A stretch of DNA of 32,000 nucleotides from Rhodobacter capsulatus SB 1003 (GTDB lineage: Bacteria; Pseudomonadota; Alphaproteobacteria; Rhodobacterales; Rhodobacteraceae), in the NCBI RefSeq assembly GCF_000021865.1, contig NC_014034.1, positions 1,020,001 through 1,052,000 on the forward strand, written 5' to 3'. The translations under genes were made by a program, and so were the position numbers. This document shows positions 441 to 26,000 of this stretch, piece by piece. How positions within the stretch are numbered: position 1 is the stretch's first letter; every line of letters starts with the position of its first letter. The notes below the pieces were generated by a model. It saw only the letters and a program-made list of their open reading frames with translations. It made no database searches and was not told the DNA's origin.

Positions 441-2537
441 TCAGCTGCTCCTTCGGCCATAGGCGACGGCCCGGGCGATGTCGGAGGCGACTTGCGCGCG
501 GGAGGCGCGGAAGCTTTCGGCATCGCGTGCATAGATGTTGACAGTGGTGCCCGCGCCCCTCTCCCAGGCGCGGGTCTCGGCACGGTTCAGAACGCGTTCG
601 CCGCGCAGAAGGACGGCGGCGTATTCGTCGGAGCCGAGGCCCATCCCTCCGCCATTGTGGAACCGCGGGGCGGCGGCGAGGGCGGCGGCGGGGATCATCA
701 TGCTGGCGGGGCCGGGCACCCGGCCGCCGGAATGGTAGACCCCGGCCGAAATCGAGCCGCCGCCGATGCCCCCACCTATCCCACCCAGCACGCCGCCCAG
801 CGCCGAGGCGAGGGGGCCGAAGACGAAGCGGCGGAAGGCGATCTTCGCCAGATCGGCGATGATCGAGGTCGCGAGGCTCGAGAAGTCGAGCTTCCCTGTC
901 CGGACGAATTCCGCGACGGCCTCTTCCCCGGCGCGGAAAGCCGAGGTGATCGCCTCGCCCACGTTGGCGCCCCAGTTCGCGGCCTCGGCGGCGTAGGTCG
1001 ACAACGCCTCGCTGACCGCCGCCCAGCCGGTCGCGGCCACGTCGGCCGCGGCGGCGACTTCCTCGGCTGTCTGCAACGGGCCCCCGCCGCCGCCCGCGCC
1101 GCCTTCGGCCGGATCGTCGGGCGTGACCGAGATTTGCAAAGCCCGATCACGGACATCGTTGAAGTATTCCGACAGGGGCGAGCCCGAGACGATGCCGCGG
1201 ATTTGGGCGGCCAGCGCCGCGCGGCGTTCGGCATCGCGGGCAGCATAGGGGTTCGCCACGCTGTCGATGCGGAAGGTGGCTGGGTCCAGTGTCGAGAGAG
1301 CCGGGTCCAGGCCAACCGCTTCCAGCGCCGCGCTCGCCGCCTCGGCCAGGGCGTTGATCCCTGCGAGCGCCTTCTCGATCATCCAGTTCACGGCATCGAT
1401 CACGGCGTTCGCGGCGCCAACCGCGAGGGCTCCGACGGCATCCGGCACACCCTGGAAGGCATAGGTGGCGCCTGCGGCCGCGACCTTGAAGGCGTTGATG
1501 ACGAGGTCGCCCATCCAGATGACGCCATCGACGATCCGCTCCCAGGCCCAATCTGCCCAGGCGACGGCATTGTCCCACCAACCGCGGATCGTATCGAAGA
1601 CCGGCTTGCCGATCTGGTAGACGTTCTCGGCAAAGACCTGCCAGGCGGCCCGCGCCACGTCGGTGAAGCTCACCTGCGCGCCGGTGGTCTCGTTGATCTC
1701 ATTGCGCATGCCCGCGATCGCGGCCGAGCCCAGCGCCACGGCGGCCGTCACCAGTGGAAAGCGCCCGGCGACCTGAAGGATGCCTTGGCCGAGGGTCCGC
1801 GCCATGCCGCCCAGATCGCGAAAGAGCGCACCGACACCGCCATTCCCGAACCCATAAATCTGAGAAATCTGGCTGCCCTGCTGCGCCATGACCATGAAAG
1901 GGTTCATGCCGCCTGCGAGAGACACCCCGATGTCCTGAAGCTGGAAGGACAGGTTGGCCATGCGGTGGCTGGCATTGCGCGTGGCCGTGCTCATCCCGCC
2001 CAGCGCGGTGGTCCGTCCCTTGATCGCCGCGATGCTGGCAAGGGTTGCCTGCCGTTCCCGCGAGATCGCCGCCGTCATCTCCTCCGCTGAAATTGCCCCC
2101 ACGCGATGGGCCTGCCGGATCTCGATCAGGGTGGTCCGGTAATCCCGCACCACCGCGAAAAGTGGGTTGTGCTTGGCGCGGAGGTCATCAAGGGCCCGGC
2201 CATAGGCCGCCACATCCACCGCATCGCGCGCCATGCCGCCCGAGACGCCGGTTGATCGGTTCACGGTGTTCATGACCGTGCCGGACACGGCGCCTGCCTG
2301 ACGCAAGGCAGCGGCCGCTCGGGCCGCCCGATCGGCAAGGTCCTGCATCTGCCGCATGGCCTCGCCTGCCGACACCCCGGCCGCGTTCAAGCCTGCCGCT
2401 GCCCGCGGGCCAGCCGCTTCGATCAGGGTCAGCGCCCGGGCGCCTTCCTGGCCGATGCCGACCAGTTCGGCCTTCAGCGCCTGACCGCCGGTCGCGACAA
2501 GGCGCACCGAGACCCGGCGTTCAGTCCGGCTGCTCAT
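441..2537 (-). CDS. Phage tail tape measure protein
   Basis: 698 aa, Ala/Gly-rich helical protein located between the tail chaperone and distal tail genes. Its start overlaps the upstream stop (ATGA at 2534-2537). Confidence 0.85.
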   Translation of the reverse strand: MSSRTERRVSVRLVATGGQALKAELVGIGQEGARALTLIEAAGPRAAAGLNAAGVSAGEAMRQMQDLADRAARAAAALRQAGAVSGTVMNTVNRSTGVSGGMARDAVDVAAYGRALDDLRAKHNPLFAVVRDYRTTLIEIRQAHRVGAISAEEMTAAISRERQATLASIAAIKGRTTALGGMSTATRNASHRMANLSFQLQDIGVSLAGGMNPFMVMAQQGSQISQIYGFGNGGVGALFRDLGGMARTLGQGILQVAGRFPLVTAAVALGSAAIAGMRNEINETTGAQVSFTDVARAAWQVFAENVYQIGKPVFDTIRGWWDNAVAWADWAWERIVDGVIWMGDLVINAFKVAAAGATYAFQGVPDAVGALAVGAANAVIDAVNWMIEKALAGINALAEAASAALEAVGLDPALSTLDPATFRIDSVANPYAARDAERRAALAAQIRGIVSGSPLSEYFNDVRDRALQISVTPDDPAEGGAGGGGGPLQTAEEVAAAADVAATGWAAVSEALSTYAAEAANWGANVGEAITSAFRAGEEAVAEFVRTGKLDFSSLATSIIADLAKIAFRRFVFGPLASALGGVLGGIGGGIGGGSISAGVYHSGGRVPGPASMMIPAAALAAAPRFHNGGGMGLGSDEYAAVLLRGERVLNRAETRAWERGAGTTVNIYARDAESFRASRAQVASDIARAVAYGRRSS

Positions 2538-3224: not shown

Positions 3225-4169
3225 TCAATAGCTGGTGGTCGTGTTGACAAGGACGGCGGTGCACATGCGGGCGGGCGAGGTGGCCCGCGCCGCCTGCCAT
3301 TCGAAGGTCGCCTGCACGCCCTGCGGTCCGTTGATCGGGATGCGGGGGCGGGGCAGATAGGCTGCGTGCACAGTGAAGGTGAGCGAGGCGTTCGCCCCCA
3401 GGCTCCAGGCGAACACGAGCTCGCAGGGATCACCGGCGATCGCTTGGTTCACCAAGGTCAGATCGGCGAACCGCGCCTCGATCGATCCGGTCAAGGCGGC
3501 CATTGATGGGTCGAGCCCTTCGAGGAGCCCGTCGTTGCGGATTGTCTCGATCCGGTCGAGGTTGTTGGCATAGGACACCTGCGCCCAGACGATATTGCCC
3601 AGCGCCGCCCCGTTCCGTGTGATCGACCCCTGAAAATTACCGAAGCGCTGCAAGGGAAGCGTGGCATCGGTGAGGACACCGGCGGCCGTCGTGGCCGCAA
3701 CCGTCTCGCCGCGGCCGATCAGGCCGACCGTCGCGGTCAACAGCCCTGACCGCTGCGATTGCCACTGGATGCGATCTGCGACGAGGCCGGAATACATCGC
3801 AAACCGCGGCACATCGGGCATTTGCGTCTCGATCGCCATGCTGGGCAGCGTGAAACCGCCCGACTGGAACGTGTGCGTCCGGGGCGTGGTGCCGGTGGTC
3901 GTGGGCTGGCCGAAGATCGCCTTCAGCCAGAAGCCGAGGTTCTCGGCATCCATAGGAATGACGACATCGCCGTCGACGTTCACCGCATCGCGGATCGGCG
4001 CCTGCGGGTCGCGGCCGTAGCCGAGGAGTTCGGGCGACAAGAGCCCTTGTTCGGAGCCGAGCGTCGTCGTGGCAAAGGGCATCCGGCGATAGCCGCTGGC
4101 GGGCGGCGTGCCGTAAACGGATTCAAAGGCGAACGCGACTTGCGTCCGCGCGCCGGGCTGGCGGGCCAT
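3225..4169 (-). CDS. Major tail (tube) protein
   Basis: 314 aa, MARQPGARTQVAFAFESVYGTPP...; located directly upstream of the chaperone pair. Confidence 0.8.
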   Translation of the reverse strand: MARQPGARTQVAFAFESVYGTPPASGYRRMPFATTTLGSEQGLLSPELLGYGRDPQAPIRDAVNVDGDVVIPMDAENLGFWLKAIFGQPTTTGTTPRTHTFQSGGFTLPSMAIETQMPDVPRFAMYSGLVADRIQWQSQRSGLLTATVGLIGRGETVAATTAAGVLTDATLPLQRFGNFQGSITRNGAALGNIVWAQVSYANNLDRIETIRNDGLLEGLDPSMAALTGSIEARFADLTLVNQAIAGDPCELVFAWSLGANASLTFTVHAAYLPRPRIPINGPQGVQATFEWQAARATSPARMCTAVLVNTTTSY

Positions 4170-4193
4170 GGGTCAGTCCTTTCGGGGGTGGGG

Positions 4194-4634
4194 TCAGAGA
4201 AGCGGGTCGGTCGTGGCGTAGGCGAGGATCACCGGGAACACCGCTGCCTTCAGACCCTCATTGCCGTCGATTGCCAGCAGCACCGGTTCCGGCGCCTCGG
4301 GCGCGATATAGTCGCAAAGGCCGCCAAGCGTGCGGTCGGCGGCGAGCGCCGTGCCGATCGCCAGGCGGAGAGCGTCAAAGGCGGCATCCCGGGCGGCGGG
4401 TGTGCCATCCACGACCACTTCGATCTCGGCCCGGTGCTCAAAGTAGTAGCCCGGCGGTGAAAGCCACACCTCCGGCGGCCCCGGATCGCCATCGCGCAGG
4501 ATCACCACCCCGGCGGCAGGCACCTTCTCGGGCAGGATCGAATTGCGCAGCACCTTGGCACCGGGCGGCACCGCGCCGGACAATAGGCTATGAAGCGACG
4601 CGAGCAGGCGCTCGGCCGTGGATTGAAATGGCAT
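4194..4634 (-). CDS. Tail terminator / tail completion-like neck protein (tentative)
   Basis: The start is trimmed to MPFQSTAERLLASL (ATG 4632-4634). The high-GC coding part begins there, and the upstream part of the track ORF lies in the AT-rich insert. The gene sits upstream of the tail tube gene. Confidence 0.6.
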   Translation of the reverse strand: MPFQSTAERLLASLHSLLSGAVPPGAKVLRNSILPEKVPAAGVVILRDGDPGPPEVWLSPPGYYFEHRAEIEVVVDGTPAARDAAFDALRLAIGTALAADRTLGGLCDYIAPEAPEPVLLAIDGNEGLKAAVFPVILAYATTDPLL

Positions 4635-4687
4635 CTCTGGTCTTTCCGAACTAAGTGCAATCAAAGACCCGAAAGTCTCACCGATTT

Positions 4688-5884
4688 CTAGTCCGAGCTG
4701 GTCGGTCCAGACCCACAAACGGCCTCGTATTCCAACAAATATTCACCCTCAGGCAGGATTTTTCCGCGCTCCGCTGAATGCAAATGTATATTGAAATCGA
4801 AGATAGTTCCCGTGTTGGCGCGCAGTGTGATGTTGGGTGTTTCAGTGGGGCTGGACAGAAGCTTTGCGCTTATGCTGGGCGGAGTGGTCATATTTGGATC
4901 GAAGCGGCCGCTGGCCGTAAAGTTTCGTACGGGTCTCGAAAGTAGTACTCTTATTCGGCCAGAATTTCTGGAGTCGTCAGCAAAATAGTACTCCTGCACA
5001 ATTTTGACTGCAGGCTCTCTCTGAAGCGAAACCTCGCGAATGTCCTCAAGCACGTCCTCATTCGCTTTTTCGCCTGCGCGCTCTTGATGGATTTGGAGGA
5101 ATCGCTCGGTCTGATAGATAAGAATGATCGATCCAGTCTCTTCGTGCGCTTCTTGAAGAAGCTCGAGTCGAGCGTTCAGCGTCTTTCCACTTTTCTTTTC
5201 CCACCAGTCCTCTTTTTGCTCAGAAGTAACCAGGATCAGTGGACGCTTTGACTGTTTCCCATAGTCTAGAATCTGCCTCCACATGAGATAATCACCGGCA
5301 AATCCGTTGCCTTCTTTTCCGTCGTCCATGTATCCAGGTGGAATCTTTTCCTTCTTGCGCCTTTCTGCCTCTTTAATAAGATCGGCAAGATTTCCGGGCT
5401 TGGAGCCAATGTTACCAGCTAACGCTGCTTCAAGGCGCGCAACAACCTCATCGTTGCTTTCGTATTCTGGAGTAGTGGACTTTTCTGTTGCTATGGAAGC
5501 CCTTGCGGTCTCAATGGCCTGTTTGAGTGATCCCTCAAGTTCCTCAGAGACAGATTTAGGGACTGCGCGAATGCCCCTAATTGCTGAAATTTGTCCCTGA
5601 GAGGATTTCATAATTTCTTCGAAGTGCTTCTCGGACTTTTCAAATTCCGAGGCGGCATCTAAAATCACTTTTCGGCGATTTTTCACGAATTCGTTGGAGG
5701 TTTGAAAAGAAATCCACAGACGACCCTTGAAGCTCTCAATAGCGCCAAGCAACGCTTCTCTTGTTGCCTTATTGTAACGGTAGAGATCCAAGAGCACATT
5801 TGCGTCAACTGTAAGCGTGCCCTTGTCCCACGCTTCCTCAAAGTCCTTGTCCGTCAGAAAGTACCATGGAAATTTATCGCGCAT
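4688..5884 (-). CDS. PIN-like domain protein (moron; candidate nuclease)
   Basis: 398 aa from MRDKFPWYFLTDKDFEEAWDKGTLTVDANVLLDLYRY (ATG 5882-5884, GGAGG SD). It later carries LILVTSEQKEDWWEK. The region is AT-richer than its flanks. Confidence 0.7.
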   Translation of the reverse strand: MRDKFPWYFLTDKDFEEAWDKGTLTVDANVLLDLYRYNKATREALLGAIESFKGRLWISFQTSNEFVKNRRKVILDAASEFEKSEKHFEEIMKSSQGQISAIRGIRAVPKSVSEELEGSLKQAIETARASIATEKSTTPEYESNDEVVARLEAALAGNIGSKPGNLADLIKEAERRKKEKIPPGYMDDGKEGNGFAGDYLMWRQILDYGKQSKRPLILVTSEQKEDWWEKKSGKTLNARLELLQEAHEETGSIILIYQTERFLQIHQERAGEKANEDVLEDIREVSLQREPAVKIVQEYYFADDSRNSGRIRVLLSRPVRNFTASGRFDPNMTTPPSISAKLLSSPTETPNITLRANTGTIFDFNIHLHSAERGKILPEGEYLLEYEAVCGSGPTSSD

Positions 5885-5906
5885 GACGCCTCCTCTATCA
5901 TTTTCA

Positions 5907-5935
5907 ACTATTGACCGCTTCCATCGGCCTTTCAA
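5907..5935 (-). promoter_or_regulatory. Candidate sigma70-type promoter for the PIN-like gene (TTGAAA-17 nt-AATAGT)
   Basis: The - strand reads cTTGAAAggccgatggaagcggtcAATAGTtgaaaatgatagaggaggcgtcATG. Confidence 0.35.
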
Positions 5936-6001
5936 GCGGACTTCTTGACCTCGGTGGACGCTCAGCTGTGCCTTCAAAGCGAAAACGCAGATGGATTGGT
6001 C

Positions 6002-6643
6002 TTATCTCTTCCACGCCCCCAGGATCGCTCCCGGCAGTCGTGCCGTCGCAGCCGGCGCCAACCCATCAAGGTCCAGCTTCTTCGGCATCTTCACCTGCCG
6101 TAAAAGGAGGAACACCGGCACGGTCTGGGCCCCGGTCAGAATACCATCCCGCCGCCGTCGCCCGCCCTTTGCTGCGGCAAGGCCCCGGCTGTTCAGCCGC
6201 GCATCATCGGCGACCAACAAACTAGGCCCGTTTCGGCGATAGACGAAGCGCAGGCGCATGCCGGTGCGCTGTTCCCAGCGCCAGGGGGTGATGCGCTGGC
6301 GGCCAAGACCGGTGACACCTGCCGCGGGCAAGGGAATGGCCAACCAGAGGCCGCCCTTGCCGCGGATCAGCACGCCGCCATCGAACGCGTGCAGGATGTC
6401 GGGCGCCTCGGTCCAGACGAGGCTTGCCGCGCGAAGGCTGGTGCCCGATCGCGGGAAGTCGGCCTGCCGAACGGTGTTGGCAAGGCGCGACCCAAGCCCA
6501 GAAGCCCGCACCTGCCCGCGCCAGTCGTCGCGCAGGCCCCGCCCGGCTGCAAAGACGCCGCGGGTGACGGCGGCCTCGGCCTCTTGCAGGATCTCGGTGG
6601 CGATTGCCGCCAGATCACCGTCGATGCTGGCGCCGATCTTCAT
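6002..6643 (-). CDS. Phage virion/neck protein (HK97 gp10-like or DUF6441-like, tentative)
   Basis: The start is trimmed to MKIGASIDGDLAAIATEIL (ATG 6641-6643), overlapping the upstream stop (ATGA). The call rests on its position in the head-tail joining block. Confidence 0.55.
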   Translation of the reverse strand: MKIGASIDGDLAAIATEILQEAEAAVTRGVFAAGRGLRDDWRGQVRASGLGSRLANTVRQADFPRSGTSLRAASLVWTEAPDILHAFDGGVLIRGKGGLWLAIPLPAAGVTGLGRQRITPWRWEQRTGMRLRFVYRRNGPSLLVADDARLNSRGLAAAKGGRRRRDGILTGAQTVPVFLLLRQVKMPKKLDLDGLAPAATARLPGAILGAWKR

Positions 6644-6954
6644 ACCTCTCGCGCCTCGGCCTTCCAGACGTGGCGCAGGGCGTCGCGCACGGGCTCGCCC
6701 CGAACCTCGTAGATCACACCCGCGATTTCGAACGTGTCCCCGGGCGCAAGGGCGCCCAGCGCGGCGCATTCGACATCGATCATCACGCTGTCGGTGACGA
6801 ACCGGCCTTCGCCGAAGCCTGACACCGCATCAGGCCGCCGCAGCATGACGCGCACGGCCATCGGCGCGCCCGCCCCACCAGATCGCCAGACCGCATCCTG
6901 TGCGAGGTTCGGATCGCGGAAGAGGGCGGCCGTGGCGCTGGCGAAGGCCGACAT
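6640..6954 (-). CDS. Head-tail connector/adaptor-like protein (tentative)
   Basis: 104 aa, ATG 6952-6954, tightly packed between the DUF2190 gene and the neck gene. Confidence 0.55.
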   Translation of the reverse strand: MSAFASATAALFRDPNLAQDAVWRSGGAGAPMAVRVMLRRPDAVSGFGEGRFVTDSVMIDVECAALGALAPGDTFEIAGVIYEVRGEPVRDALRHVWKAEAREV

Positions 6955-6955
6955 C

Positions 6956-7294
6956 TCAGGTTGCTCCCCCGTTCAGGCGCACGATGCCGGTCGTGTCACC
7001 CGCACCGCCTGCCACAGCTTGCGTGGCGATGCCGATCCGGGTGTTGCCGGTTAGAACGTTGGTGGTCCGGCTGTTCGCCGCATCCCAGTAGATCGTCTGA
7101 CCGACCGTCCAGGCCTGCGAGGGCGCCTTCGGCAGCGAGAACACGCCCACCAGCCGGATGACGGCGGTGTCGCCGGTCGCCGCAGCGCCCTCGGCCACGC
7201 CGAAGATGCTGCCGACCAGCACGCCCTGGCCTGAGGCGATGGCTGCTGCTGCGGTGATGTTGATGGTTTCGCCATTGGCGATGAAGTTTTTCAT
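6956..7294 (-). CDS. DUF2190-family phage head protein (decoration-like)
   Basis: 112 aa, MKNFIANGETINITAAAAIASGQGVLVGSIFGVA...; Gly/Ala-rich beta protein directly after the capsid gene, with an AGGAG SD. Confidence 0.75.
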   Translation of the reverse strand: MKNFIANGETINITAAAAIASGQGVLVGSIFGVAEGAAATGDTAVIRLVGVFSLPKAPSQAWTVGQTIYWDAANSRTTNVLTGNTRIGIATQAVAGGAGDTTGIVRLNGGAT

Positions 7295-7320
7295 CGGGGT
7301 TCTCCTTCAGAGTTTGGGAT

Positions 7321-9339
7321 TCAGACGCCCGCGTTGCGGAAGAGGCCGCGCCAGTCGATGGCTTTGGCGGCGAAGTCGTGGCGGGCCTTGATCTCGATGC
7401 CGTCGACCTCGAAGCCCGAGCGGGTCTCGGTGTAGACGCCCTGCTGGCCCTCGAGATAGGCGAACTCGATCGTGTCGATCCGCGAGGGATCGGCGGCCAA
7501 GAACCAAGGGTCGGGCCCGGCGGCGGGGATCAGGCGGGCTTCCTCGATCGGTTCCAGGCGGTTGGCGAAGGCGTTGACTCCGGCGACCGCATTCGGGGTG
7601 GTGGCGGTGACGTTCTTGCGCGCCTCAACCGACCGCACGCCGGGCGGGGTGATGATGTAGCGCGGCAAGACACTGATCTGGCGGCCCTCAAGGCCGCGCT
7701 GGTTGCCGAAGAGGCGATAGGCTTCGGCGAGGGTGGTTTCCGAGATCGTGCCCGCCGTGCCGAGGTTGGCGTGGGAGGCATGGAACAGCGGGTTGCCATC
7801 GGCCATGTTGGGATTGGTCGAAAAGATCGAATATACCAGATCGCTTTCCAGATCCGCTGCCGCGGCACCAAACGCGGACGGGATACGGGTGAAGGCATCA
7901 AGATCGTCATTGATCAGTGTCTGCCGGGTGATGCCCACAATCCGGCCGTAGGTCACCAGCGCATAGACCTCGCGGCTTTCGCCGATGGTGCCATAGGTGA
8001 ACTCTCCCGATTCCGGCACGCGCAGCAGGTCCGGCGCACCGCCAAGCTGGTTGCGGGCGACCGGCTTGAAGTCGGTGATCACGGCCTGCCGCGCCCAGGC
8101 CGTGAAGGTGCGGGGCGTGGTGTCATAGGCCGCGCGCAGGGTCTTGTTGGCGACATTGGCCAGGATCAGGGGAAAGTCGCTGGTCGAATGCAGACCGGAA
8201 CGGCCGATCAGGGCCTCGGTCGCCAGTTCCATCTTCGACAGGCCGCGCGTGGCGATGCCGCGGCGATCAAGGGCGTGGCGGGCCAGTTCGAGAAGGGTCA
8301 GGCCGCGGAACTCGCGGGCGCGGTCGGTCAGTTGCGCTCGGCCGGGGTTGTGGCGGTGCAGGAGCGCCTCGGACATGGCATCGCGATAGGCGGCCTCAGT
8401 TGCCCCGGTGCCGCGAGCGGTGGCCGCGACAGGTTCCGATCCCCGGGCCGCTGGTGCATCGGCCTCGGCCAGCTTGTCGAGGATCGCAGCCCGGGCGGCA
8501 TCCAACGACAGGCCCCGCCGGATCATATCGGCGGCGAAGCCTGCGCCAAGCGCGTGGCGTTCGCAGAGCGCCAGCACTTCGGCTGCGGAACGGTTCGCTT
8601 CGGTGCGGATCGCATCGGGGGAGGGATCGGCTGCGGGCGGCGTGATGGGCGCGGGCGCGGCGCGGGTTTCGGCGGGAGCGTCAGGTTCGGGGATCTGGGT
8701 GTCGGGCATGGTGGTCCTCGTCTGGTTCGGGGAAGGGGCGGGCGCGTCTGCCCGGGTGAGGAGGCAGGGGGTGAGGGTTTCAGTTCGGGCGGCGCCGGTT
8801 GCCGCATCGGCGCCGCGGATATGCGCGCCGGGATCGGCGGGCATGGCGACGGCGGAGATTTCCATCGGCTCCCAGTCGACCGCGCGCCACAACTCGCGCT
8901 GGCCTTGGGCCTTGGTGATGTCGTAGCGATGGACCCGGTAGCCGACGGAGACGGCCGAGACCGTGCCATCCATGATCCGCTGCACGATCGGCGCGGCATC
9001 AGGCGCCGACGTCAGCCGCACCCGGGCAAAGCCCTGGCCGCCTTCGATCCGGGCGGAACCTGGCAGAACGGCACCCACAACGGATTCCAGCCCCCAGGAC
9101 CGGTGCGAATCCAGGAACGGCGCGCCCGCATTCAGGCGGTCCATCCGCACCGCGCCGGGCGTGACGACCAGTTCCTCGTCATATTCGACGACATCATCCC
9201 AGCCCTCATAGCGCCGCCGCTGAACGGTGGCGCCGGTGGTCCAGATCACGTCGATCGTCATGTCGTCGCCCTCGCCGCGGACAAGGCGCAGCGAGGCCTC
9301 CCGCGTGATCAGCGGGAGGTTTCGGGTCTCAGGGGGCAT
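7321..9339 (-). CDS. Prohead protease - scaffold-like linker - major capsid protein fusion
   Basis: 672 aa with three parts. The N-terminal ~190 aa is HK97-type prohead protease-like (..LDSHRSWGLESVVG..VSVGYRV..). A Pro/Ala-rich linker follows. The C-terminal ~330 aa is capsid-like (..FTYGTIGESREVYALVTYGRIVGITRQTLINDDLDAF..). Confidence 0.8.
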   Translation of the reverse strand: MPPETRNLPLITREASLRLVRGEGDDMTIDVIWTTGATVQRRRYEGWDDVVEYDEELVVTPGAVRMDRLNAGAPFLDSHRSWGLESVVGAVLPGSARIEGGQGFARVRLTSAPDAAPIVQRIMDGTVSAVSVGYRVHRYDITKAQGQRELWRAVDWEPMEISAVAMPADPGAHIRGADAATGAARTETLTPCLLTRADAPAPSPNQTRTTMPDTQIPEPDAPAETRAAPAPITPPAADPSPDAIRTEANRSAAEVLALCERHALGAGFAADMIRRGLSLDAARAAILDKLAEADAPAARGSEPVAATARGTGATEAAYRDAMSEALLHRHNPGRAQLTDRAREFRGLTLLELARHALDRRGIATRGLSKMELATEALIGRSGLHSTSDFPLILANVANKTLRAAYDTTPRTFTAWARQAVITDFKPVARNQLGGAPDLLRVPESGEFTYGTIGESREVYALVTYGRIVGITRQTLINDDLDAFTRIPSAFGAAAADLESDLVYSIFSTNPNMADGNPLFHASHANLGTAGTISETTLAEAYRLFGNQRGLEGRQISVLPRYIITPPGVRSVEARKNVTATTPNAVAGVNAFANRLEPIEEARLIPAAGPDPWFLAADPSRIDTIEFAYLEGQQGVYTETRSGFEVDGIEIKARHDFAAKAIDWRGLFRNAGV

Positions 9340-9431
9340 GGGAGAGGCTCCGTTCTGAGGAGATTTCAGTTCGCGCTTGTGCGTCTCGGCGTTTTATGAA
9401 AATATGGATTTATGAAGGATAGGAGATTCGG

Positions 9432-9989
9432 ATGCCCACGATCGAAATCACTGACTACGACTTCGCCCGCCTGCAGAAAGTGGCCGTGCCGTTCATCGAC
9501 ACGCCCGCGACGGTCTTTACGAAGGTGATGGACGCCTTCGAGCGCGCCAACACTGCGGCGGCTGCTCCGGCCTCCGTTCCGGTCGCTACGGCCAACCTGC
9601 CGGTCTACCATCACGACAATCTCCCTCCGCTTACCCATACGAAGCTGCTTGAGGCTACTTTTGATGGGAAGCAGCCCGAGAAGGTCGCGTGGGACGCGCT
9701 TGTGCGGCTGGCCTTGATCGAGACCAAGGAGCAGGCGGGTTCGATCCAGGGGCTGCGCAAGATCGCGGCAGCAAACATCGTTGAAGGCCGCAAGGACGAC
9801 GAAGGCTACAAGTTCCTCCCTGAGCATGGCTTTTCCTATCAGGGCGTTTCGGCAGAGGATGCGGTCAAGATCGTCTTCCGCTGCGCCAAGGGGCTGAAGG
9901 TCAACCTCTTTGCCGAGTTTGAATGGCGGTCCAAAGACGATGCCTACCGCCCCGGCGAACGGGCGCGCCTCGAGTACCGCGCCAGCTGA
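9432..9989 (+). CDS. Hypothetical protein, opposite-strand moron between capsid and portal genes
   Basis: 185 aa with ATG 9432, AGGAG SD at 9421-9425 and an AT-rich upstream region. The amino-acid composition looks normal, unlike the shadow ORFs. Confidence 0.7.
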   Translation: MPTIEITDYDFARLQKVAVPFIDTPATVFTKVMDAFERANTAAAAPASVPVATANLPVYHHDNLPPLTHTKLLEATFDGKQPEKVAWDALVRLALIETKEQAGSIQGLRKIAAANIVEGRKDDEGYKFLPEHGFSYQGVSAEDAVKIVFRCAKGLKVNLFAEFEWRSKDDAYRPGERARLEYRAS

Positions 9990-9997
9990 ACAGTTGA

Positions 9998-11521
9998 TCA
10001 TTGTTCCTCCGTGGGCGGGTCGCGATCCGTCGCGTCCACGGCTTGCGCGAGACCGGCGCGGCTGACGCGGCGGGGATCAGCATCGAAAATCAGGCCCAGC
10101 TGATCGAAGAGGGCGGCGTACTTCTGCCATTCCTCGACGACTTCGCGCGGGTCGTAACCGCGGCGGGCGATCTGCTGGGCGGGGGTTGAGAAGCCCGCAC
10201 GGACCTCCATCAGATCGGCCGTCACGTCCTGCAGCGGGTTCACGCTTTCAAACCGGGGCGGGGCCCATTCGACGGCGATCTCGGGCTGGGGCAGGGCACC
10301 AGCCGTCCAGGCGGCCTCCATCACCCAATCCCAGATGCGCTGGCAGAACATCGGGATCACCACTTGCCACTGGACCGCTTCGACCATGCGCCGGAACTCG
10401 TGCAGGCCGACGCGCGAGGAGGCGAAGTTCACCTGTGACAGATCGCCCGTCATCAGCTCGTAGGGCACGCGGAACCCGGCCGAGATGATGTGCTGCTGAA
10501 CCTGGTTCCATTCGTAGATGCCCGAGGTGGAGGCGGGCGTGCTGAACTTGATGTCCTTGCCGTTGCGCACGTATCCGATCAGACCGGGTTCGAATTGTTC
10601 GATCCGGTTGCCGTCGGCATCCTGCACCACCGGCGCCATGGATTGCTGATCCTCGTCGGCGCCGAAGACGAAGCCGACCATAGAGGCTTCGATCTTCTTG
10701 CGGACCAGTTCGGCGGTCTGCCAGTCGCCCAGTTCCCTGAGCGCCCGCATGGCGGGCACGCCCCAAGGCACGCCGCGGTTCTGCACGCGCTGGCGTTCGA
10801 AGAGGTGGGCGACGCCGTCTGCCCCGACCCTCAGCGATTCAAACCGGCGCCCGAAGACCGGCATCGCATCGCCGGGATGGTCGGGGAACATCCAGTAGCC
10901 CCGGCGGCGGCCGAGCGCGTCGTATTCGATGCCCTGGACGATCCGGCCTCCGTCAGGCCGGTTGTCGAACTTGGCCCCATCGAGGTGATCGGCCTCGTTG
11001 AGCTGGATCTGCACTGGGGCTGCCAATCGGTCACTGGCCCGGCGGCGATGGCGCAGGGCAAAGACTTCGCCGCCTTCGATCATTTCGCGCACGGCCAGAG
11101 CGGTCAGGCCGTGGAAGTCGGTGTGCCCATCGGCATCGGCACGCGGCGCCCAGCGCTTCCAGAGATCATCGGCGAGCTTGTTCAGCGCCGGATCGGCCGC
11201 CGCGGCCCGGGGACGAATGCCGGTGCCGACGATGTTCGACACCAGAACCTGTACGGCCTTTGCGGCAAGCGGATCATTGCGGACCAGATCGCGCATGCGG
11301 TCGCGCAGGGCGCCACCCGCAACTGCGATTTCCGCGTCGGCCGCGGTGCTGCCTGCGCGCCAGCCATCCGTGCCGCGCCCGCGGGCGGCAGCATCGTAGC
11401 CCCGCCGAAGGTTGGCGATTGCCACCCGGGCGGCATAGCGCCGGGCGGCCGTGCGGGGCGCGACCGTCGCCACGATCCGATCGATCACGCCCCAGGGCAC
11501 ATCGGGCGGCGAGGGTTTCAT
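9998..11521 (-). CDS. Phage portal protein, lambda family
   Basis: 507 aa, ...RGYDAAARGRGTDGWRAGSTAADAEI..LRDRMRDLVRNDPLAAKAV...; ATGA overlap with the gpW-like gene. Confidence 0.9.
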   Translation of the reverse strand: MKPSPPDVPWGVIDRIVATVAPRTAARRYAARVAIANLRRGYDAAARGRGTDGWRAGSTAADAEIAVAGGALRDRMRDLVRNDPLAAKAVQVLVSNIVGTGIRPRAAAADPALNKLADDLWKRWAPRADADGHTDFHGLTALAVREMIEGGEVFALRHRRRASDRLAAPVQIQLNEADHLDGAKFDNRPDGGRIVQGIEYDALGRRRGYWMFPDHPGDAMPVFGRRFESLRVGADGVAHLFERQRVQNRGVPWGVPAMRALRELGDWQTAELVRKKIEASMVGFVFGADEDQQSMAPVVQDADGNRIEQFEPGLIGYVRNGKDIKFSTPASTSGIYEWNQVQQHIISAGFRVPYELMTGDLSQVNFASSRVGLHEFRRMVEAVQWQVVIPMFCQRIWDWVMEAAWTAGALPQPEIAVEWAPPRFESVNPLQDVTADLMEVRAGFSTPAQQIARRGYDPREVVEEWQKYAALFDQLGLIFDADPRRVSRAGLAQAVDATDRDPPTEEQ

Positions 11522-11727
11522 GTGCGGCCCCGGCTGAAGCTAGCCTTGCCCGCAACCGGCCGGGTATTGCCCGTGCCAGTTGCCATCTGCCCCTCGATGA
11601 AGCGGATGCGGGCCAGAAGATCGGCGGCATTCCCATAGGTCAGGCGGCGCCCATCGTATTCCACCACCAAGGCGCCTGCGGCATAGGCGCGGTGGAGCGC
11701 ATCAAGTTCGGCTTGCGAGAAGGACAT
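11518..11727 (-). CDS. gpW-like head-tail joining protein
   Basis: MSFSQAELDALHRAYAAGALVVEYDGRRLTYGNAADLLARIRFIEGQMA... The start at 11725-11727 overlaps the terL stop (ATGA). An alternative ATG lies at 11734-11736. The longer track ORF is not credible. Confidence 0.65.
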   Translation of the reverse strand: MSFSQAELDALHRAYAAGALVVEYDGRRLTYGNAADLLARIRFIEGQMATGTGNTRPVAGKASFSRGRT

Positions 11728-13709
11728 CAGAGCCATTTTCCACGTCGGGGCCCGAGCCAGCCGGTTGGGCGCTTCGGGGCAGATTGCGGTTGCGGCCGGT
11801 CGGGTTGACCGGCCGGGGTGGTTGCCGGGCGCGCAGGCCCGATCTGTTCTTCCAGCGCTTCCCAGCGCGCGTTGTCCCAGCGATCGATCCCCATCAGCCA
11901 GGCGGCGGCGCGGGCATAGACCCGGCAGTCGAGGGCCTCGTTGCGTTCCCGGGTCTGTTCCCATTCGAGCTTCTGATAGCCGGTGCGGGTTTTGCGGGTG
12001 ACGAGTTGTTCAGACGTCAGCTGCTTCACCCATTCGGCCGTGGTGCCCTTCGGGATATGCACAAAGCCTGCGGGCCAGTCGGCCCCGGCTGCCCGTTCCT
12101 CATCGGTCGGCGCGGCCAGGCGCAGGAAACGGTAGGTCTCGGCCTTGAAGACGGCACCCGCCACTTTCCAGAGCCGGACCCCGCGGCGGAGCTTTCGGCC
12201 GCCTTCAGTCGTTTCCACATAGGTGGGCCCGTCCACTGGCGTTGATCGATCAAACCCGGCCACGCCCTTGATGGCGATCACTTGTCCGTGCCCAGCTTGC
12301 CGGACCCAAGCATAAACCGCGTCGGTCGTGGCGCCGTCACCTGAGTCGATCGCCACCCGCGCCAGTGCCATCCGGGCGCCCGAAGCGTGTTCCCATGTCA
12401 TGCCGAGGAACTCATTCAGATCGGCCCAAACCTCCGCCCGGGCGGTGTCGCCCTCAAGGACGACGTGATCGACGAGCCAAGAGCGAAGATTCCGTCCCCA
12501 ACCCCAAACGTCGATCTCGATCCGGTCGCGCTGCACGTCGATCCCTGCCGTGAGGATCAGCACACCGACAGGCGCACGGCCCAACTGCCAATCCTCGCGC
12601 CGCTCATAGAGCCGCTGCCAGTCCGGCGCTTCGCCGCGCTCCGCCCAGGTTTCGCCGAGGACGGTGTTCTTGACGGTTTTCAGTGCGGAGTCGTTGCCTT
12701 GCGCCTGATCCCAGCGCCGGGCGATTTCTTCCCAGGACAACCACCCGAGGGGCGAGTAGAGCCCCGAGATGTGGAACCCGATCACGCCTGCCATCTCAGC
12801 CGAAGCCTGCACATCGGGTGCAGCCGTCGGCAGCCAATCCGCCCCGTTCTCCTCGTCCATCATCCATGTTTTGTGCCGCTCGGCGATTGGCGCCTCGCAA
12901 TGTTCGCAGAGATAGGCGGCGGTGTCCGGTCGCCCCTTTTCCCAGCGCAGCCGTTCGAACTTCAGCCATTGCAGCCCGCCGCAATGCGGGCAGGGGACGT
13001 GATAGCGGCGCTGGTCGGTCAATTCGAACTCCCGCTCGATCCGGCTGAGGCCCTTGATCGTGGGCGTCGAGGCCAGGAAGATTTTCTTGCGGTGGCCGAA
13101 GCTGTCGGTGCGGGCTTCAGCCAGCGCCACCGGATCGCCTTCCCCCTCAAGGTCGCCCGGATAGGCGTCGACCTCGTCCAGAAAGAGCCAGCGCGCGGGC
13201 ATTGACCGCAGCCCCACGGCCGAGTTCGCGCCGGTCAGCACCAACTGGCCGCTGGGGAAACGCTTGGCCAGCACCGTGTTTCCGGCGTCGCGCGACCGGG
13301 CGGGCAGGACGAGGGCCCGGAGGTCTGGGCTTTCCTCGATCAGGGGTTCGATCCGCTGCTGGCTGAGGCTCTTGGCCAGATCGGTCGTCGGTTGCACCGC
13401 CAAGATCGGCCCCGGCGCGCGGTGGATGCAGAAGCCGATCCAGTTATTTCCGGCCTCGGTAGCGCCGACCTGCGCCGACTTCATGAACACCACCCGCTGC
13501 GCCGGGTTGTTCGGCGACAGGGCCTCCATGATCGCCTTGAGGTAGGGCGTCCGGCTGGTGCGATAGGGTCCGGCCTCTGACGCTGCCCGCGACGACAGGA
13601 TGCGGTGCCGGTCTGCCCATTCAGCCACGGTCTGCGCCGGATCGGGCGCCAGACCCCGTGCCCAGGCGACAGCGATATCCTCCGCCCCCTCGAAGCTAGC
13701 GAAGTTCAA
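11727..13709 (-). CDS. terL: Terminase large subunit (lambda GpA family)
   Basis: 660 aa with a TTG start at 13707-13709 preceded by GGAGG. The N-terminus reads ...AEWADRHRILSSRAASEAGPYRTSRTPYLKAIMEAL.., and a zinc-like CPHCG...CEHC motif is present. Confidence 0.9.
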   Translation of the reverse strand: MNFASFEGAEDIAVAWARGLAPDPAQTVAEWADRHRILSSRAASEAGPYRTSRTPYLKAIMEALSPNNPAQRVVFMKSAQVGATEAGNNWIGFCIHRAPGPILAVQPTTDLAKSLSQQRIEPLIEESPDLRALVLPARSRDAGNTVLAKRFPSGQLVLTGANSAVGLRSMPARWLFLDEVDAYPGDLEGEGDPVALAEARTDSFGHRKKIFLASTPTIKGLSRIEREFELTDQRRYHVPCPHCGGLQWLKFERLRWEKGRPDTAAYLCEHCEAPIAERHKTWMMDEENGADWLPTAAPDVQASAEMAGVIGFHISGLYSPLGWLSWEEIARRWDQAQGNDSALKTVKNTVLGETWAERGEAPDWQRLYERREDWQLGRAPVGVLILTAGIDVQRDRIEIDVWGWGRNLRSWLVDHVVLEGDTARAEVWADLNEFLGMTWEHASGARMALARVAIDSGDGATTDAVYAWVRQAGHGQVIAIKGVAGFDRSTPVDGPTYVETTEGGRKLRRGVRLWKVAGAVFKAETYRFLRLAAPTDEERAAGADWPAGFVHIPKGTTAEWVKQLTSEQLVTRKTRTGYQKLEWEQTRERNEALDCRVYARAAAWLMGIDRWDNARWEALEEQIGPARPATTPAGQPDRPQPQSAPKRPTGWLGPRRGKWL

Positions 13710-21678: not shown

Positions 21679-22908
21679 ATGAAGGCAAAACTCTCTGAAC
21701 GCGTTGTAAAGGCTGCCGAAGTCGGCAGCCGCAAGTACGTCCTGTTTGACGAAGACACCCCCGGCTTCGGGCTCTGCGTCTACACGACGGGGCGAAAGGG
21801 CTTCGTCCTGATCTATCGGATCGCGGGCCAGCAGAAGCGCTTCACGATCGGCGTCTGGCCGACATGGTCGGTCACCGCCGCCCGGGATGAAGCGAAGCGC
21901 CTGATCCGTGAAATCGACCGCGGGGAAGACCCTCTCGACACTCGCAAGGCGGCCCGCGGTGCGCCGACGGTCAAGGAACTGGCCGAGCGGTTCATCGAAG
22001 AGCACCTGCCGAAGCTGGCCAAGACCAACGCTTCGGACCAGAAGAGCATGCTGGAAAAGCTGGTGCTGCCCGAATGGAAGAACCGGAAGGTGGCGGACAT
22101 CACGCCCACGGACGTCGATCGCCTGCTGACCAAGATCGCGGCCGGGCGGGCGCGGCCGTCGAAGAAGAAGCCCACGCAGAAGCGCCGCAAAAAGCTGGCC
22201 CCGCCCAAGCCCACGCCGGTGCGCGCCAACAGGGCGGGTGAAATGCTGCGCAAGATGTTCAACCTCGCCATGCTGTGGAAAATGCGCACCGACAATCCCG
22301 CCTTCGGTTTCCGGCGCCGCCCCGAGGTTGCCCGCGACCGGTTCCTATCTTTCGAGGAGATCGAACGCCTAGCCAACGCGCTGGCAGTCGACGAAGACCA
22401 GCGCGCCGCCAGCATCATCCGCCTCTGCATGCTGACCGGCGCCCGGCTGGGCGAGGTCCGCACCGCCACCTTCGACCAGTTCAACCTCGATCTGGCCATC
22501 TGGACCAAGCAGGCCGCTTACACAAAGCAGCGCCGCATCCACCGCGTGCCGATCTCGCACGAAGCCGTGGCGCTGATCCGCCTGCGCAGGGAAATCGTGC
22601 CGAAGGGCTGCCCGTTCCTCTTCCCCGGCGACGTACCCGACCAGCCCGTTGGCGATCCCAAGCGCTTCTGGCCGAAGATGCAGAAGGTCGCCCTGATCCC
22701 CGACGTGCGCATCCACGACCTGCGCCACACCTTCGCCTCGCTGCTGGTTTCCGGCGGCGCATCGCTGGAAATGATCGGCCGCCTCCTCGGCCACACCCAG
22801 ATCGGCACCACCCAGCGCTACGCCCACCTGATCGACGCACCCCTGCGGGCGGGGGTCAACGCAGTGGGTGAGATGCTGAAGCCGCGGTTGAGGGTGGTGG
22901 GGGAGTAA
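21679..22908 (+). CDS. int: Tyrosine site-specific integrase (P4-type with DUF4102-like N-terminal arm-binding domain)
   Basis: 409 aa. The N-terminus is MKAKLSERVVKAAEVGSRKYVLFDEDTPGFGLCVYTTGRKGFVLIYR. The catalytic region is ..TGARLGEV..HDLRHTFASLL..LLGHTQIGTTQRYAHL. Confidence 0.95.
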   Translation: MKAKLSERVVKAAEVGSRKYVLFDEDTPGFGLCVYTTGRKGFVLIYRIAGQQKRFTIGVWPTWSVTAARDEAKRLIREIDRGEDPLDTRKAARGAPTVKELAERFIEEHLPKLAKTNASDQKSMLEKLVLPEWKNRKVADITPTDVDRLLTKIAAGRARPSKKKPTQKRRKKLAPPKPTPVRANRAGEMLRKMFNLAMLWKMRTDNPAFGFRRRPEVARDRFLSFEEIERLANALAVDEDQRAASIIRLCMLTGARLGEVRTATFDQFNLDLAIWTKQAAYTKQRRIHRVPISHEAVALIRLRREIVPKGCPFLFPGDVPDQPVGDPKRFWPKMQKVALIPDVRIHDLRHTFASLLVSGGASLEMIGRLLGHTQIGTTQRYAHLIDAPLRAGVNAVGEMLKPRLRVVGE

Positions 22909-23078: not shown

Positions 23079-26000
23079 ATGCTCAGCCAAAGTTTTCGGC
23101 ATAGCATGAAATCGAACGAGTCAAATTTCGGATTTTTGCAATCCCACGAACCCCAGCTTTACAGGCTGGGGACACTAGCGGAGCGCTATTTTTCTGAAGA
23201 CCCGAACACATGCAACATTAAGCTGCGACAGTTCTCGGAATTGGTGGCGCAGTTTACTGCGAGCAGATTGGGTCTTCCGATTGCACAATCGGACAACCTT
23301 GCCGACCTGCTTCGGTTACTAAAGATCGAGCGCAGCCTTCCAAAACAAGTCCTTGAGATACTCCACAGTTTGCGAATCGCCGGTAACCAGGCAGCGCATC
23401 AAAATACCGATGACCACTCAAGTGCCTTAAGCGGACTCAAGCTCGCGCGCCAATTGGCGATCTGGTATTTCAGAACATTTCACAAGCCCTCTGGTATTTT
23501 TGGTCCTTTCATTCCGCCAGAAAGGCCCAAGGACGTTTCAGAATCGATCGTCTTGGAGCTGGAACGTTTAAAGGCGGAGTTGGAGGCCTCCCTCACTGAA
23601 GCCGATCAACTACGGGAAGCGGCAAGGCAGGCCGAAATTGAAAGGAAAAGCGCTGCAGATCGCGCCGAGCAGGAGCGAGTTGACCGCGAAACTTGGGAGA
23701 AGCTTGCGGAGGAAGCGGAGGAAGATCGCAGGGCCCTTTCCTCACAGCTACAATCATTGCAAGTTCAGGCTTCCTCCAAGGACGCTCTAACGTTTGAGGC
23801 AGTCACCGAACTGGCTCGAGATGCTGCCAGCAAGATCAACCTGGACGAGGCAGACACACGGGTTCTTATCGATAAGCAATTGCGCGATGCAGGATGGGAG
23901 GCGGACACGAAACAACTTCGGTTCGCATCCGGTGCTCGCCCCATGAAAGGCCGCAATCGCGCGATCAGTGAATGGCCAGCCGAAAGTGGACCGGCCGACT
24001 ACGCACTCTTCTGCGGCATGGTCTTGGTGGGAACCGTGGAGGCAAAGCGGCAGAACAGAAATGTCATGGAGGTCTTGCGGCAGGCAGAACGGTACTCAGC
24101 GGGCTTCAAGCTGAATGAAGGTGAACTGGCACAAGGTGCTCCTTGGGCAGGTTTCAAAGCTCCCTTTGCGTTCTCGACAAACGGACGGCCCTACCTCAAG
24201 CAGGTTGAAACCTTGTCGGGCATCTGGCGGCGGGATTTGCGCGATGCCAACAACCCTGCCGAAGTGCTTGTCGGATGGCCTTCACCTCGCGGGCTGCTTG
24301 AGCGGCTGACTGTGAATAAGTCCGCAGCGCACCATGACCTTGCATCGCAGCCCTTCGACTTTGGGTTTCCGCTAAGACCATATCAACACAAGGCGATCGA
24401 GGCGGTTGAACAGGCATTGCTTGAGGATCGGCGGGCGATGCTCGTCGCTATGGCAACCGGAACGGGGAAGACAAAGCTCGCAATCGCTATGCTTTACCGG
24501 CTGATCGCCGCCAAGCGGTTCCGCCGCGTCTGCTTCGTTGTGGATAGAAGCGCGTTGGGTGAGCAGACCGAGAGCGAGTTCACCACTACCAAAGTGGTCA
24601 ACGGCAAGTCTTTTGCGGACATTTTTGGCCTCAAGGGGCTTGATGACGTGGTCCCCGATGACGAAACCCGCATCCACATCTGCACGATCCAGGGGTTGGT
24701 CCGCCGAGTGCTGTATGCCGCTGATGAGGCTGATGCGCCCACAGTCGACCAGTATGATCTGATCGTGGTGGACGAATGCCATCGCGGGTATCTGCTCGAC
24801 CGCGAAATGTCTGAGGGCGACATTACGTTTCGCAGCCAGGACGACTACATCTCGAAGTACCGCCGAGTCCTCGAGTACTTCGATGCGGTAAAGATTGGCC
24901 TGACGGCCACACCAGCGCTACACACCACTGAAATCTTCGGTCTTCCAGTGTTCACTTATTCCTATCGCGAAGCAGTGGTTGACGGTTACCTTGTTGATCA
25001 CGAACCGCCGGTGCGCATCGGAACGCTGTTGTCTGAGGGTGGTATCCATTTCTCTCGTGACGACCAAGTTGATTTCATCCACCCAACAAGCGGAGCAATT
25101 CAACCCGCTACTTTGCCAGACGACATCGACTTCGAGGTTGACCAGTTCAACAAGAGCGTTATCACCGTCCCTTTCAATCGAGTAATCGCACAAGAGCTCA
25201 CGAAGTTCATCGATCCAAGCTTGCCAGATAAGACGCTGGTCTTTGCTGTGTCCGACGCGCACGCGGATATCCTTGTGAACGAGTTGCGGGTCGCATTCCG
25301 TTCAGCATTTGGCGCGCTGCCTGATGCAACTGTGCAGAAGATCACGGGGAAAGTCGACAAGGTCGGAAAGTTGATCCGATCGTTCCGCAACGATCCACTG
25401 CCTAAAGTGGCGGTGACAGTAGACCTCCTGACTACTGGGATCGACGTCCCTCGGATCAGCAATCTGGTGTTCATGCGGCGCGTCAACAGCCGTATCCTTT
25501 ACGAACAAATGCTTGGCCGTGCCACCCGGCTATGTCCAGAAATCGACAAGGAGGCTTTTCGCATCTTCGACGCGGTGGACCTCTACGCTCATTTGCAAAA
25601 CCTTACCGACATGCGGCCGGTGGCTGCGGACCCAAGCTTCACCCTCACAAAGCTGTTCGAAGAACTCAGCCAACGCGGCGACGTAGAACATAAAGAGCGT
25701 GTGCGTGAGCAGATCATCGTTCGCCTCCGACGCAAGCTGCGGCGCTTGTCGCCAGAGGCACGGGCTCGATTTGAAAAGGCTGCGGGTGAAACTCCGGAAG
25801 AAAGCCTGCAGCGTTTTATCTCTGGCGATGCCAGCGCGCTTGCAGAATGGGCGGCCGAGCGACCTTCTTTGGGCCCGATCCTTGACTGGACCTCGGAGGA
25901 TGGCACTCCAAACTATATCCCGATCTCTGAACATCCTGATCAGGTAACGACCGTTTCACGCGGCTATGGTGCAGCAGACCGGCCCGAGGACTTTCTGGAT

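Follow-up and report, generated by a model that had tools for sequence, protein, structure and literature searches.

A PIN_8 nuclease joined to a C-terminal beta-sandwich, carried in a prophage cargo hotspot of Rhodobacteraceae, as a candidate single-gene abortive-infection protein

The stretch of DNA analyzed here (positions 1,020,001 to 1,052,000 of Rhodobacter capsulatus SB 1003 contig NC_014034.1; 32,000 nucleotides, hereafter the window) carries on its minus strand the late (virion) operon of a temperate siphovirus. In this operon, a 1,367-bp insert separates a DUF6441 neck or minor tail gene from the tail-terminator gene and encodes a protein with a PIN_8 nuclease domain and a C-terminal beta-sandwich, for which a role in abortive infection (Abi) is proposed below (Table 1). 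The insert occupies the exact interval between the DUF6441 stop codon (6002) and the tail-terminator ATG (4634). Measured between the flanking genes, its G+C content (GC) is 0.49 versus 0.68 for the flanks; in 300-nt windows, GC across 4651-6000 is 0.46-0.52 versus 0.65-0.72 on either side, and the lowest-GC 1-kb bin of the whole window is 5001-6000 (0.481). A sequence-only reading of this DNA had described an AT-rich block, with these same borders, interrupting a tightly packed operon. Both points are borne out: the cultured RcC-cluster Rhodobacter phages (e.g. RcBaka) and Nostoc phage Nsp-JY21 have no insert at this junction, and their flanking genes overlap or abut. An att-marking tRNA gene was looked for in the window and none was found.

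The insert contains a single long open reading frame (ORF) of 398 codons, which runs on the minus strand from an ATG at 5884-5882 to a TAG at 4690-4688. The Pfam family PIN_8 (PF18476) matches it over profile positions 3-227 of 227 with a score of 194.7 bits (cut-off 26.1; E=2.8e-57), PIN_12/DUF4935 matches it weakly, and phrog_9788, a PHROG family of unknown function, matches it over its full length (E=1.6e-145). The motifs TLTVDANVLLDLYRY and LILVTSEQKEDWWEK are both present and fall inside one PIN_8 domain, and residues D27, D33, E65, D198, E222 and D226 are invariant across 42 homologues of 41-100% identity, in whose alignment 55 positions are invariant in total. Four of these acidic residues would form the metal-coordinating set. 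The family was defined by Matelska et al. 2017 (PMC5499597), who assigned it to the VapC-like group with 4-5 conserved active-site residues and gave its function as unknown; for the related DUF4935 family, the same work described a long insert of helices that follows strand S2. An AlphaFold2 (AF2) model of the whole protein, built from the 42 homologues, has a mean predicted local distance difference test (pLDDT) of 89.2 and a predicted template modelling score (pTM) of 0.70. In its N-terminal part, short strands alternate with helices in a manner resembling a PIN fold, and a long insertion with helices at residues 60-103, 110-137, 146-155 and 166-178 breaks this pattern. The protein shares with the PIN_8 family the full profile, the acidic residues and the long helical insertion, and its N-terminal domain is predicted to be a metal-dependent nuclease of the VapC group, most likely an RNase. 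The Pfam model ends at residue 242, however, and the C-terminal beta-sandwich, which defines the subfamily of about 400 aa, lies outside it.

The PIN-like signature noticed in the earlier reading therefore corresponds to a strong PIN_8 match and a weaker PIN_12 match, and the ORF it reported is real, with the correction that it lies on the minus strand. Its division of the protein into three parts needs revision: a C-terminal domain of about 100 aa exists, but the charged helical middle region is an insertion in the PIN domain, so that there are two domains, not three. The gene also has its own Shine-Dalgarno-like sequence, as claimed (AGAGGAGG, 4 bases, 5888-5885, ahead of the ATG). The proposed promoter TTGAAA-17-AATAGT is present on the minus strand (5935..5907) and matches 9 of the 12 positions of a sigma-70-like consensus, but a scan of the region returned 3 promoter-like sites where 0.9 were expected by chance, which makes it weak evidence. 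No intrinsic terminator was found 3' of the ORF, and the hairpin downstream does not outperform shuffled sequence (z=0.32). Since the gene has the orientation of the late operon and lacks a terminator on both sides, it is expected to be transcribed late too; the suggestion that it is expressed independently of late transcription keeps a promoter candidate in its favor but would describe at most part of its expression. No partner or antitoxin ORF was found in the 117 nt upstream or the 53 nt downstream of the PIN_8 ORF.

A search of genomes and viral contigs with the DUF6441 protein recovered 67 loci. Every locus with a DUF6441 protein at least 89% identical and with both flanks present has an insert at exactly this site (40 loci, 31 of them distinct); the hosts of the loci include Gemmobacter, Aliigemmobacter, Paracoccus, Thioclava, Rhodobacter and Tabrizicola. 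The inserts range from 812 to 3,731 bp, have a GC of 0.46-0.61 versus 0.61-0.69 in the flanks and fall into 20 unrelated sequence types. Homology with the relatives breaks off at two borders, the DUF6441 stop codon and the terminator ATG, and the flanking genes are 84-96% identical among close relatives. Relatives with a DUF6441 protein at most 65% identical have no insert, their flanking genes lying 12-21 nt apart. Something other than PIN_8 fills the slot in 27 of the 31 distinct close relatives. The expectation that the PIN_8 gene is not a conserved core component of the neck module is confirmed by this comparison, in which it is absent from related neck modules and is one of about 20 alternative cargoes at the site. 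The best explanation of the insert is a moron, accessory DNA gained by horizontal transfer and lodged in a cargo hotspot that works by recombination, in a lineage of temperate siphoviruses of Rhodobacteraceae.

The commonest cargo type pairs Phd and VapC (PDB VapC30 match, 4e-27) with a reverse-strand DUF6998 gene. The others include DUF6998 alone, which is of unknown function; a Gp49/HigB-like gene with HTH_3; SocA_Panacea with a partner gene; HTH_36 with Abi_2 (PADLOC PD-T4-5, 1.8e-16); DUF2806 with CSD-Mrr_cat (PDC-S02, 3e-14); DUF3800; DUF4747 with a transmembrane (TM) protein; a pentapeptide-repeat protein with a Polbeta nucleotidyltransferase; an insertion sequence (IS) element with a methyltransferase and an NTP transferase; and at least seven cassettes without annotation. 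Recognizable toxin-antitoxin (TA), Abi or defense-like genes occur in 6 of the 20 types (VapBC, Gp49 with HTH, Panacea, Abi_2/PD-T4-5, CSD-Mrr/PDC-S02 and DUF3800), and most of the remaining types are without annotation. For several cargoes, the coding strand is opposite to that of the late operon, and these must therefore be expressed independently of late transcription.

Individual cargoes and hosts of the hotspot show further features. DUF6998 (PF22522) is the most recurrent cargo, present in 14 of the 40 loci either alone or on the opposite strand beside Phd-VapC, and it has no match in PADLOC. The products of the unannotated cassettes, of which there are at least seven, are 248-426 aa long and match neither a Pfam family nor, at a significant level, any PADLOC model; the N-terminus of one resembles a signal peptide, another looks membrane-spanning, and they are candidates for accessory or defense functions. 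The prophage lineage is present three times in Gemmobacter denitrificans JM10B15 (contigs 11 and 13; loci L018, L023 and L024), and the cargo differs between the copies: a DUF4145-like protein with DUF6998, HTH_36 with Abi_2, and DUF6998 alone. In the draft assemblies of Paracoccus salsus (L016/L036) and Paenirhodobacter enshiensis (L029/L035), the sequence breaks off at the hotspot or shortly before it, where DUF6441 has its 3' end, as would be expected if one genome held several related prophages of differing cargo.

A total of 117 contigs, two of them 3.8-Mb chromosomes, encode the identical 398-aa protein, and its context is the same in every case. Alleles 89% and 62% identical to it occupy the same slot with the same spacing, among virion proteins 91-99% identical to those of the window. 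Compared with the 89% allele, the PIN_8 gene has a synonymous divergence (dS) of 0.86 and a ratio of nonsynonymous to synonymous divergence (dN/dS) of 0.06, which indicates strong purifying selection; compared with the 62% allele, dS is saturated. Synonymous divergence of the backbone genes is 0.3-0.5, lower than that of the PIN_8 gene, so the alleles predate the backbones in which they sit. Old alleles have been swapped in, the outcome to be expected if recombination in the conserved flanks exchanges cassettes. Accelerated evolution of the cargo in place was rejected, since the dS of PIN_8 is itself above that of the backbone.

Comparison of the window (3225-9339) with the loci L112 and L114 shows greater divergence in the two genes flanking the hotspot than elsewhere in the backbone. 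DUF6441 and the terminator show 91-95% amino acid identity with a dN/dS of 0.07-0.16, versus 97-99% and 0.02-0.04 for the tube and capsid genes; synonymous divergence is alike, at 0.3-0.5, across backbone genes including the flanks.

The C-terminal domain is predicted to be a seven-strand beta-sandwich (AF2 pLDDT 90.4, pTM 0.79). It has no match in Pfam, the family profile found nothing beyond chance-level matches among PDB sequences (E>=0.02), and Foldseek with this domain alone against the PDB returned the phage phi297 tailspike as its best match (TMq 0.59, E about 7e-3), in agreement with the earlier remark that this part of the protein carries no recognizable motif. Against BFVD, the best Foldseek matches are H-type-lectin and tail-fiber sandwiches (TM at most 0.63). 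We searched 1.84 billion representative proteins with a profile of residues 283-398; a word-indexed search with this profile gave just 10 fragments, and the exhaustive search of representatives was the informative one. It recovered 204 clusters at E<=1e-3, of which 156 also pass E<=1e-10. Screening of the 147 listed clusters with a local hidden Markov model (HMM) of the PIN_8 part identified about 60 in which the sandwich follows a different N-terminus of at least 120 aa. Most of these N-termini combine two TM segments with a coiled coil (40 clusters); a further TM and coiled-coil group accounts for 8 clusters and a multi-TM group for 3. The rest are a HerA/DUF87-FtsK-type ATPase (2 clusters), a Nuc_deoxyrib_tr-like domain below the Pfam cut-off (2), and single clusters with TIR_2, RelA_SpoT (P0205), nSTAND1 with ankyrin repeats in a protein of 1,399 aa, Pkinase with TPR, and an unannotated N-terminus. 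Pfam searches of ten sandwich proteins confirmed the N-terminal assignments and found PIN_8 in none of the ten. In the TM versions, the positive-inside rule would place the sandwich in the cytoplasm. One repeat protein (P0257) was taken as a spurious carrier, only 29 profile positions being matched.

The exchange also runs the other way, in that the PIN_8 proteins of phages and plasmids align to residues 1 to about 286 only and have unrelated C-termini. A nuclease with alternative C-termini and a sandwich with many partners form a pattern like that of bacterial immune proteins such as CapRel, DARNA/PD-T7-3 and the bacterial Schlafens. The genomic contexts of P0205 and P0144 are contigs of only 2-3.5 kb and little informative. 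P0144, which joins the two-TM module to the sandwich, adjoins a Peptidase_C14 (caspase-like) gene and a DNA methylase gene on its short metagenomic contig.

Of the 8,000 candidates scored for similarity to the PIN_8 protein, 675 were homologues; the 120 listed are mostly about 400 aa long, aligned over almost their full length, and come from Alpha-, Beta- and Gammaproteobacteria and Bacteroidota. PIN_8 family members are mostly monocistronic and bacterial, and a few are viral. In seven further contexts the gene is solitary, with no conserved neighbor and a spacer of 200-400 nt around it. Some homologues sit in variable regions or beside NERD-UvrD, SIR2-STAND with a transposase, or a large N6-methylase with IS66. 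Homologues in general are almost always much richer in AT than the DNA around them (GC 0.38 vs 0.63, 0.40 vs 0.66 and 0.49 vs 0.70). PIN_8 domains occur on 47 plasmids and also on 23 viral contigs, in many cases close to a contig end.

Taken together, these data slightly favor, over all else, the reading in which the PIN_8 and beta-sandwich protein is a prophage-borne single-gene abortive-infection protein, an RNase held inhibited by its sandwich and triggered through it. In the lysogen, the protein would be present at a low level and autoinhibited by the beta-sandwich. A trigger from a superinfecting phage, either a protein or a nucleic-acid state, would engage the sandwich and release the PIN nuclease, which would then cut cellular or phage RNA. 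Translation would stop and the infection would abort, protecting the lysogenic population and hence the prophage. The sequence-only reading had already pointed to a defense or abortive-infection gene; the computational checks it listed all turned out in its favor, as seen for the HMM match, the related neck modules, the named defense systems and the C-terminal domain, and the protective function itself is a proposal.

Several observations weigh against this interpretation. The proposed promoter is a weak consensus match, and production during the lytic growth of the prophage itself should occur, which suits a role in serving the phage equally well. Foldseek with the whole protein against the PDB returned beta-sandwich matches only, with no PIN structure and no match at E<1e-3. 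The modeled sandwich resembles only generic lectin, carbohydrate-binding module and tailspike sandwiches, matches that carry no functional conclusion, and the sensor role suggested for it draws solely on the logic of domain shuffling. No named or candidate defense system matches the PIN_8 protein in PADLOC-DB 2.0 (0 families at E<=1), just as the earlier reading could name none, and an NCBIfam scan gave no match; PIN_8 thus has no precedent in defense. Several homologues lie among housekeeping genes, as in Aeromonas and Parvibaculum, and not in defense islands.

The orientation of the gene is the chief caveat, and it leaves room for two other interpretations, both of them unlikely. According to the first, the PIN protein is an addiction or stabilization module, a fused or solitary toxin that penalizes loss or inactivation of the prophage or serves competition between elements and does not sense infection. 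PIN domains are archetypal TA toxins (Matelska et al. 2017, PMC5499597), the commonest alternative cargoes at the site are type II TA pairs (VapBC, HigB-like/HTH and Panacea), and a PIN_8 protein is encoded by the only accessory gene of one 4.2-kb plasmid. Post-segregational killing, however, needs an unstable antidote, and the PIN_8 locus has neither an antitoxin gene nor room for one and offers no other candidate; furthermore, the sandwich is common to TIR, STAND, kinase and TM proteins, none of which are TA toxins. TA systems and anti-phage Abi overlap heavily, and the addiction interpretation is partly compatible with abortive infection.

We give a similarly low probability to the second interpretation, in which the protein is made late and serves the phage by shutting off or degrading host RNA, recycling nucleotides, or attacking competitor transcripts or host defense. 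Late read-through is expected from the orientation and the absence of terminators, and the protein belongs to its own PHROG family (phrog_9788), with PIN_8 on the 23 viral contigs mentioned above and in Clostridium phage phiCp-A. The gene is dispensable, however, as shown by the other cargo in 27 of 31 close relatives and the empty junctions of distant ones; many full-length homologues are solo chromosomal genes without phage context, and the alternative cargoes are of TA and Abi type, several of them on the opposite strand.

A homing-type selfish nuclease, which would cut the empty neck/terminator junction of related phages and insert a copy of its own gene, like the free-standing homing endonucleases of T4-like phages, is very improbable. 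The insertion is exact between two conserved genes, and the 89% and 62% alleles share slot and spacing; yet about 20 unrelated cargoes, most of them without a nuclease, use the slot, and recombination in the flanks, not homing, explains the site. Homologues also occur at many unrelated chromosomal and plasmid sites, Pfam matched PIN_8 and PIN_12 only and no homing-endonuclease family, and the C-terminal domain is common to proteins that are not nucleases. Finally, despite its atypical composition and the absence of a known function, the interpretation of the insert as decaying, non-functional foreign DNA is effectively refuted by the intact 398-aa ORF, the dN/dS of 0.06, the 55 invariant positions in 42 homologues and the identical protein on 117 contigs.

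The proposed abortive-infection protein can be set beside several known systems. VapBC, which in its Phd-VapC form fills this hotspot more often than any other alternative cargo, also has a PIN-fold, metal-dependent nuclease as its toxin. The VapBC toxin, however, is a single-domain protein of about 130 aa with an adjacent antitoxin gene, whereas the window protein is three times larger (398 aa), has two domains and a helical insert of about 120 aa, and lacks an antitoxin gene; its homologues elsewhere have no conserved neighbor that could match the adjacency of VapBC. Regulation of the PIN_8 protein would therefore have to act in cis. CapRel (SJ46), a fused toxin-antitoxin defense protein, has the corresponding layout, a single prophage-borne polypeptide in which a conserved toxic enzyme at the N-terminus is followed by a regulatory or sensor part (PMC9712102), and P0205 joins a RelA_SpoT domain to the sandwich of the window protein. 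The effector of CapRel is RelA/SpoT instead of PIN and has no sequence or domain homology to that of the window protein, and the likeness is one of logic, not membership. DARNA/PD-T7-3, a single-gene abortive-infection protein, joins a HEPN RNase to a C-terminal sensor (bioRxiv 10.64898/2026.02.22.705581), and bacterial Schlafen nucleases are fused to diverse sensors (PMC12330615). Both differ from the window protein in nuclease fold (HEPN or Schlafen versus PIN) and in sensor (helical versus beta-sandwich), and there is no homology. For the slot itself, the closest parallel is provided by the antiviral hotspots that P2-like prophages and P4-like satellites carry (Rousset et al. 2022, PMC9122126). 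There, too, a fixed slot with conserved flanks holds many alternative cargoes in closely related elements, in P2 and P4 mostly of defense type. The present slot belongs to a different phage lineage, with a lambda-type terminase and portal and an RcGTA-like distal tail, in Rhodobacteraceae, and lies inside the late structural operon at the neck/tail-terminator junction.

The beta-sandwich is found on at least eight kinds of module: PIN_8, the two-TM pore-type module, TIR, RelA/SpoT, the HerA-like ATPase, STAND-ankyrin, the Ser/Thr kinase and the deoxyribosyltransferase-like domain. A wider proposal, which we regard as possible but somewhat short of even odds, is that it is an undescribed, widely shuffled infection-sensing domain that would define a new family of single-protein receptors sharing one phage cue, and that the neck/tail-terminator junction would be a library of about 20 exchangeable defense cassettes. 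Apart from this proposal, the PIN_8 and beta-sandwich protein is a candidate for a new single-gene defense family, its promiscuous C-terminal domain is undescribed, and the slot is a hotspot not reported before.

Three other features were observed in or near this prophage type. A second moron, a 662-bp insert with a GC of 0.59, lies between the portal and protease-capsid genes and contains an ORF of 185 aa oriented against the virion operon; no PDB relative was found for it. The insert is present in the prophage type of the window and in three relatives (L037, L039 and L046) and absent, with a spacing of 8-13 nt, in all other close relatives with a measurable junction. At the tail-terminator/tail-tube junction, the relative carrying the 62% allele (L114) has a reverse-strand gene encoding 169 aa, where other relatives have 26-33 nt; this junction is possibly a third variable site. 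Lastly, a type I restriction-modification (RM) system, consisting of HsdR (with an N-terminal DUF4145 and EcoEI_R_C), HsdM, a DUF4357 protein and HsdS, sits in a block of lower GC (0.53-0.61) and directly abuts the tyrosine integrase of the prophage.

Table 1. Features of the window and of related loci (positions in the window unless a locus is named)
Feature	Position	Strand	Remarks
AT-rich cargo cassette, 1,367 bp	4635-6001	.	relatives' homology ends at both borders
398-aa ORF, PIN_8 and C-terminal beta-sandwich	4688-5884	-	stop codon included
PIN_8 (PF18476) domain, residues 25-242	5159-5812	-	six invariant acidic residues
Long helical insertion in PIN domain, residues 60-178	5351-5707	-	AF2 model m2bc70cba6e00, pLDDT about 90
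Seven-strand beta-sandwich, residues 293-389	4718-5008	-	predicted; proposed sensor or regulatory module
Shine-Dalgarno-like sequence	5889-5896	-	read from sequence
Sigma-70-like promoter candidate	5907-5935	-	9/12 consensus matches
Large terminase	11727-13709	-	late operon
Lambda-type portal	9998-11521	-	late operon
Second moron, 662-bp insert	~9340-9997		between portal and protease-capsid genes
Second-moron ORF	9432-9989	+	185 aa
Protease-capsid fusion	7321-9339	-	late operon
Cement protein	6956-7294	-	late operon
Phage_attach	6640-6954	-	late operon
DUF6441 (phrog_6367), neck/minor tail gene	6002-6643	-	left hotspot flank; 89-96% identical in relatives with other cargo
Tail terminator (phrog_4204)	4194-4634	-	right hotspot flank; E=6e-40; 84-95% identical in relatives with other cargo
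Tail tube	3225-4169	-	late operon
Chaperone	between tail tube and tape measure in gene order	-	late operon
Tape measure	441-2537	-	late operon
Tyrosine integrase	21679-22908		near RM block
Type I RM system	23079-30500	+	HsdR, HsdM, DUF4357 protein, HsdS
DUF6998	L021 6350-6856	-	hotspot cargo
DUF6998	L018 2718-3218	-	hotspot cargo
DUF6998	L024 5710-6222	+	hotspot cargo
DUF6998	L044 6022-6528	+	hotspot cargo
Unannotated cassette	L014 5677-6957	-	hotspot cargo
Unannotated cassette	L015 3923-4930	+	hotspot cargo
Unannotated cassettes	L022, L027, L052, L056, L058		hotspot cargo
169-aa gene	L114 5668-6177	-	strand as in locus; tail-terminator/tail-tube junction
P0144, two-TM and sandwich	L111 130-2140		beside Peptidase_C14 and DNA methylase genes

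If the abortive-infection reading is correct, it would give PIN_8, a family of hundreds of proteins listed since 2017 as being of unknown function, its first biological role. It would also mean that a compact beta-sandwich is reused as a plug-in partner for many toxic and signaling modules, and the recognition target of the sandwich would be directly testable with one small domain. Furthermore, the junction would offer a slot for defense discovery outside the enterobacterial models, in a widespread alphaproteobacterial prophage in which more than half of the approximately 20 cassettes are without annotation. Cargo of either orientation can be tolerated amid the genes of a late structural operon, which bears on how such an operon is transcribed.

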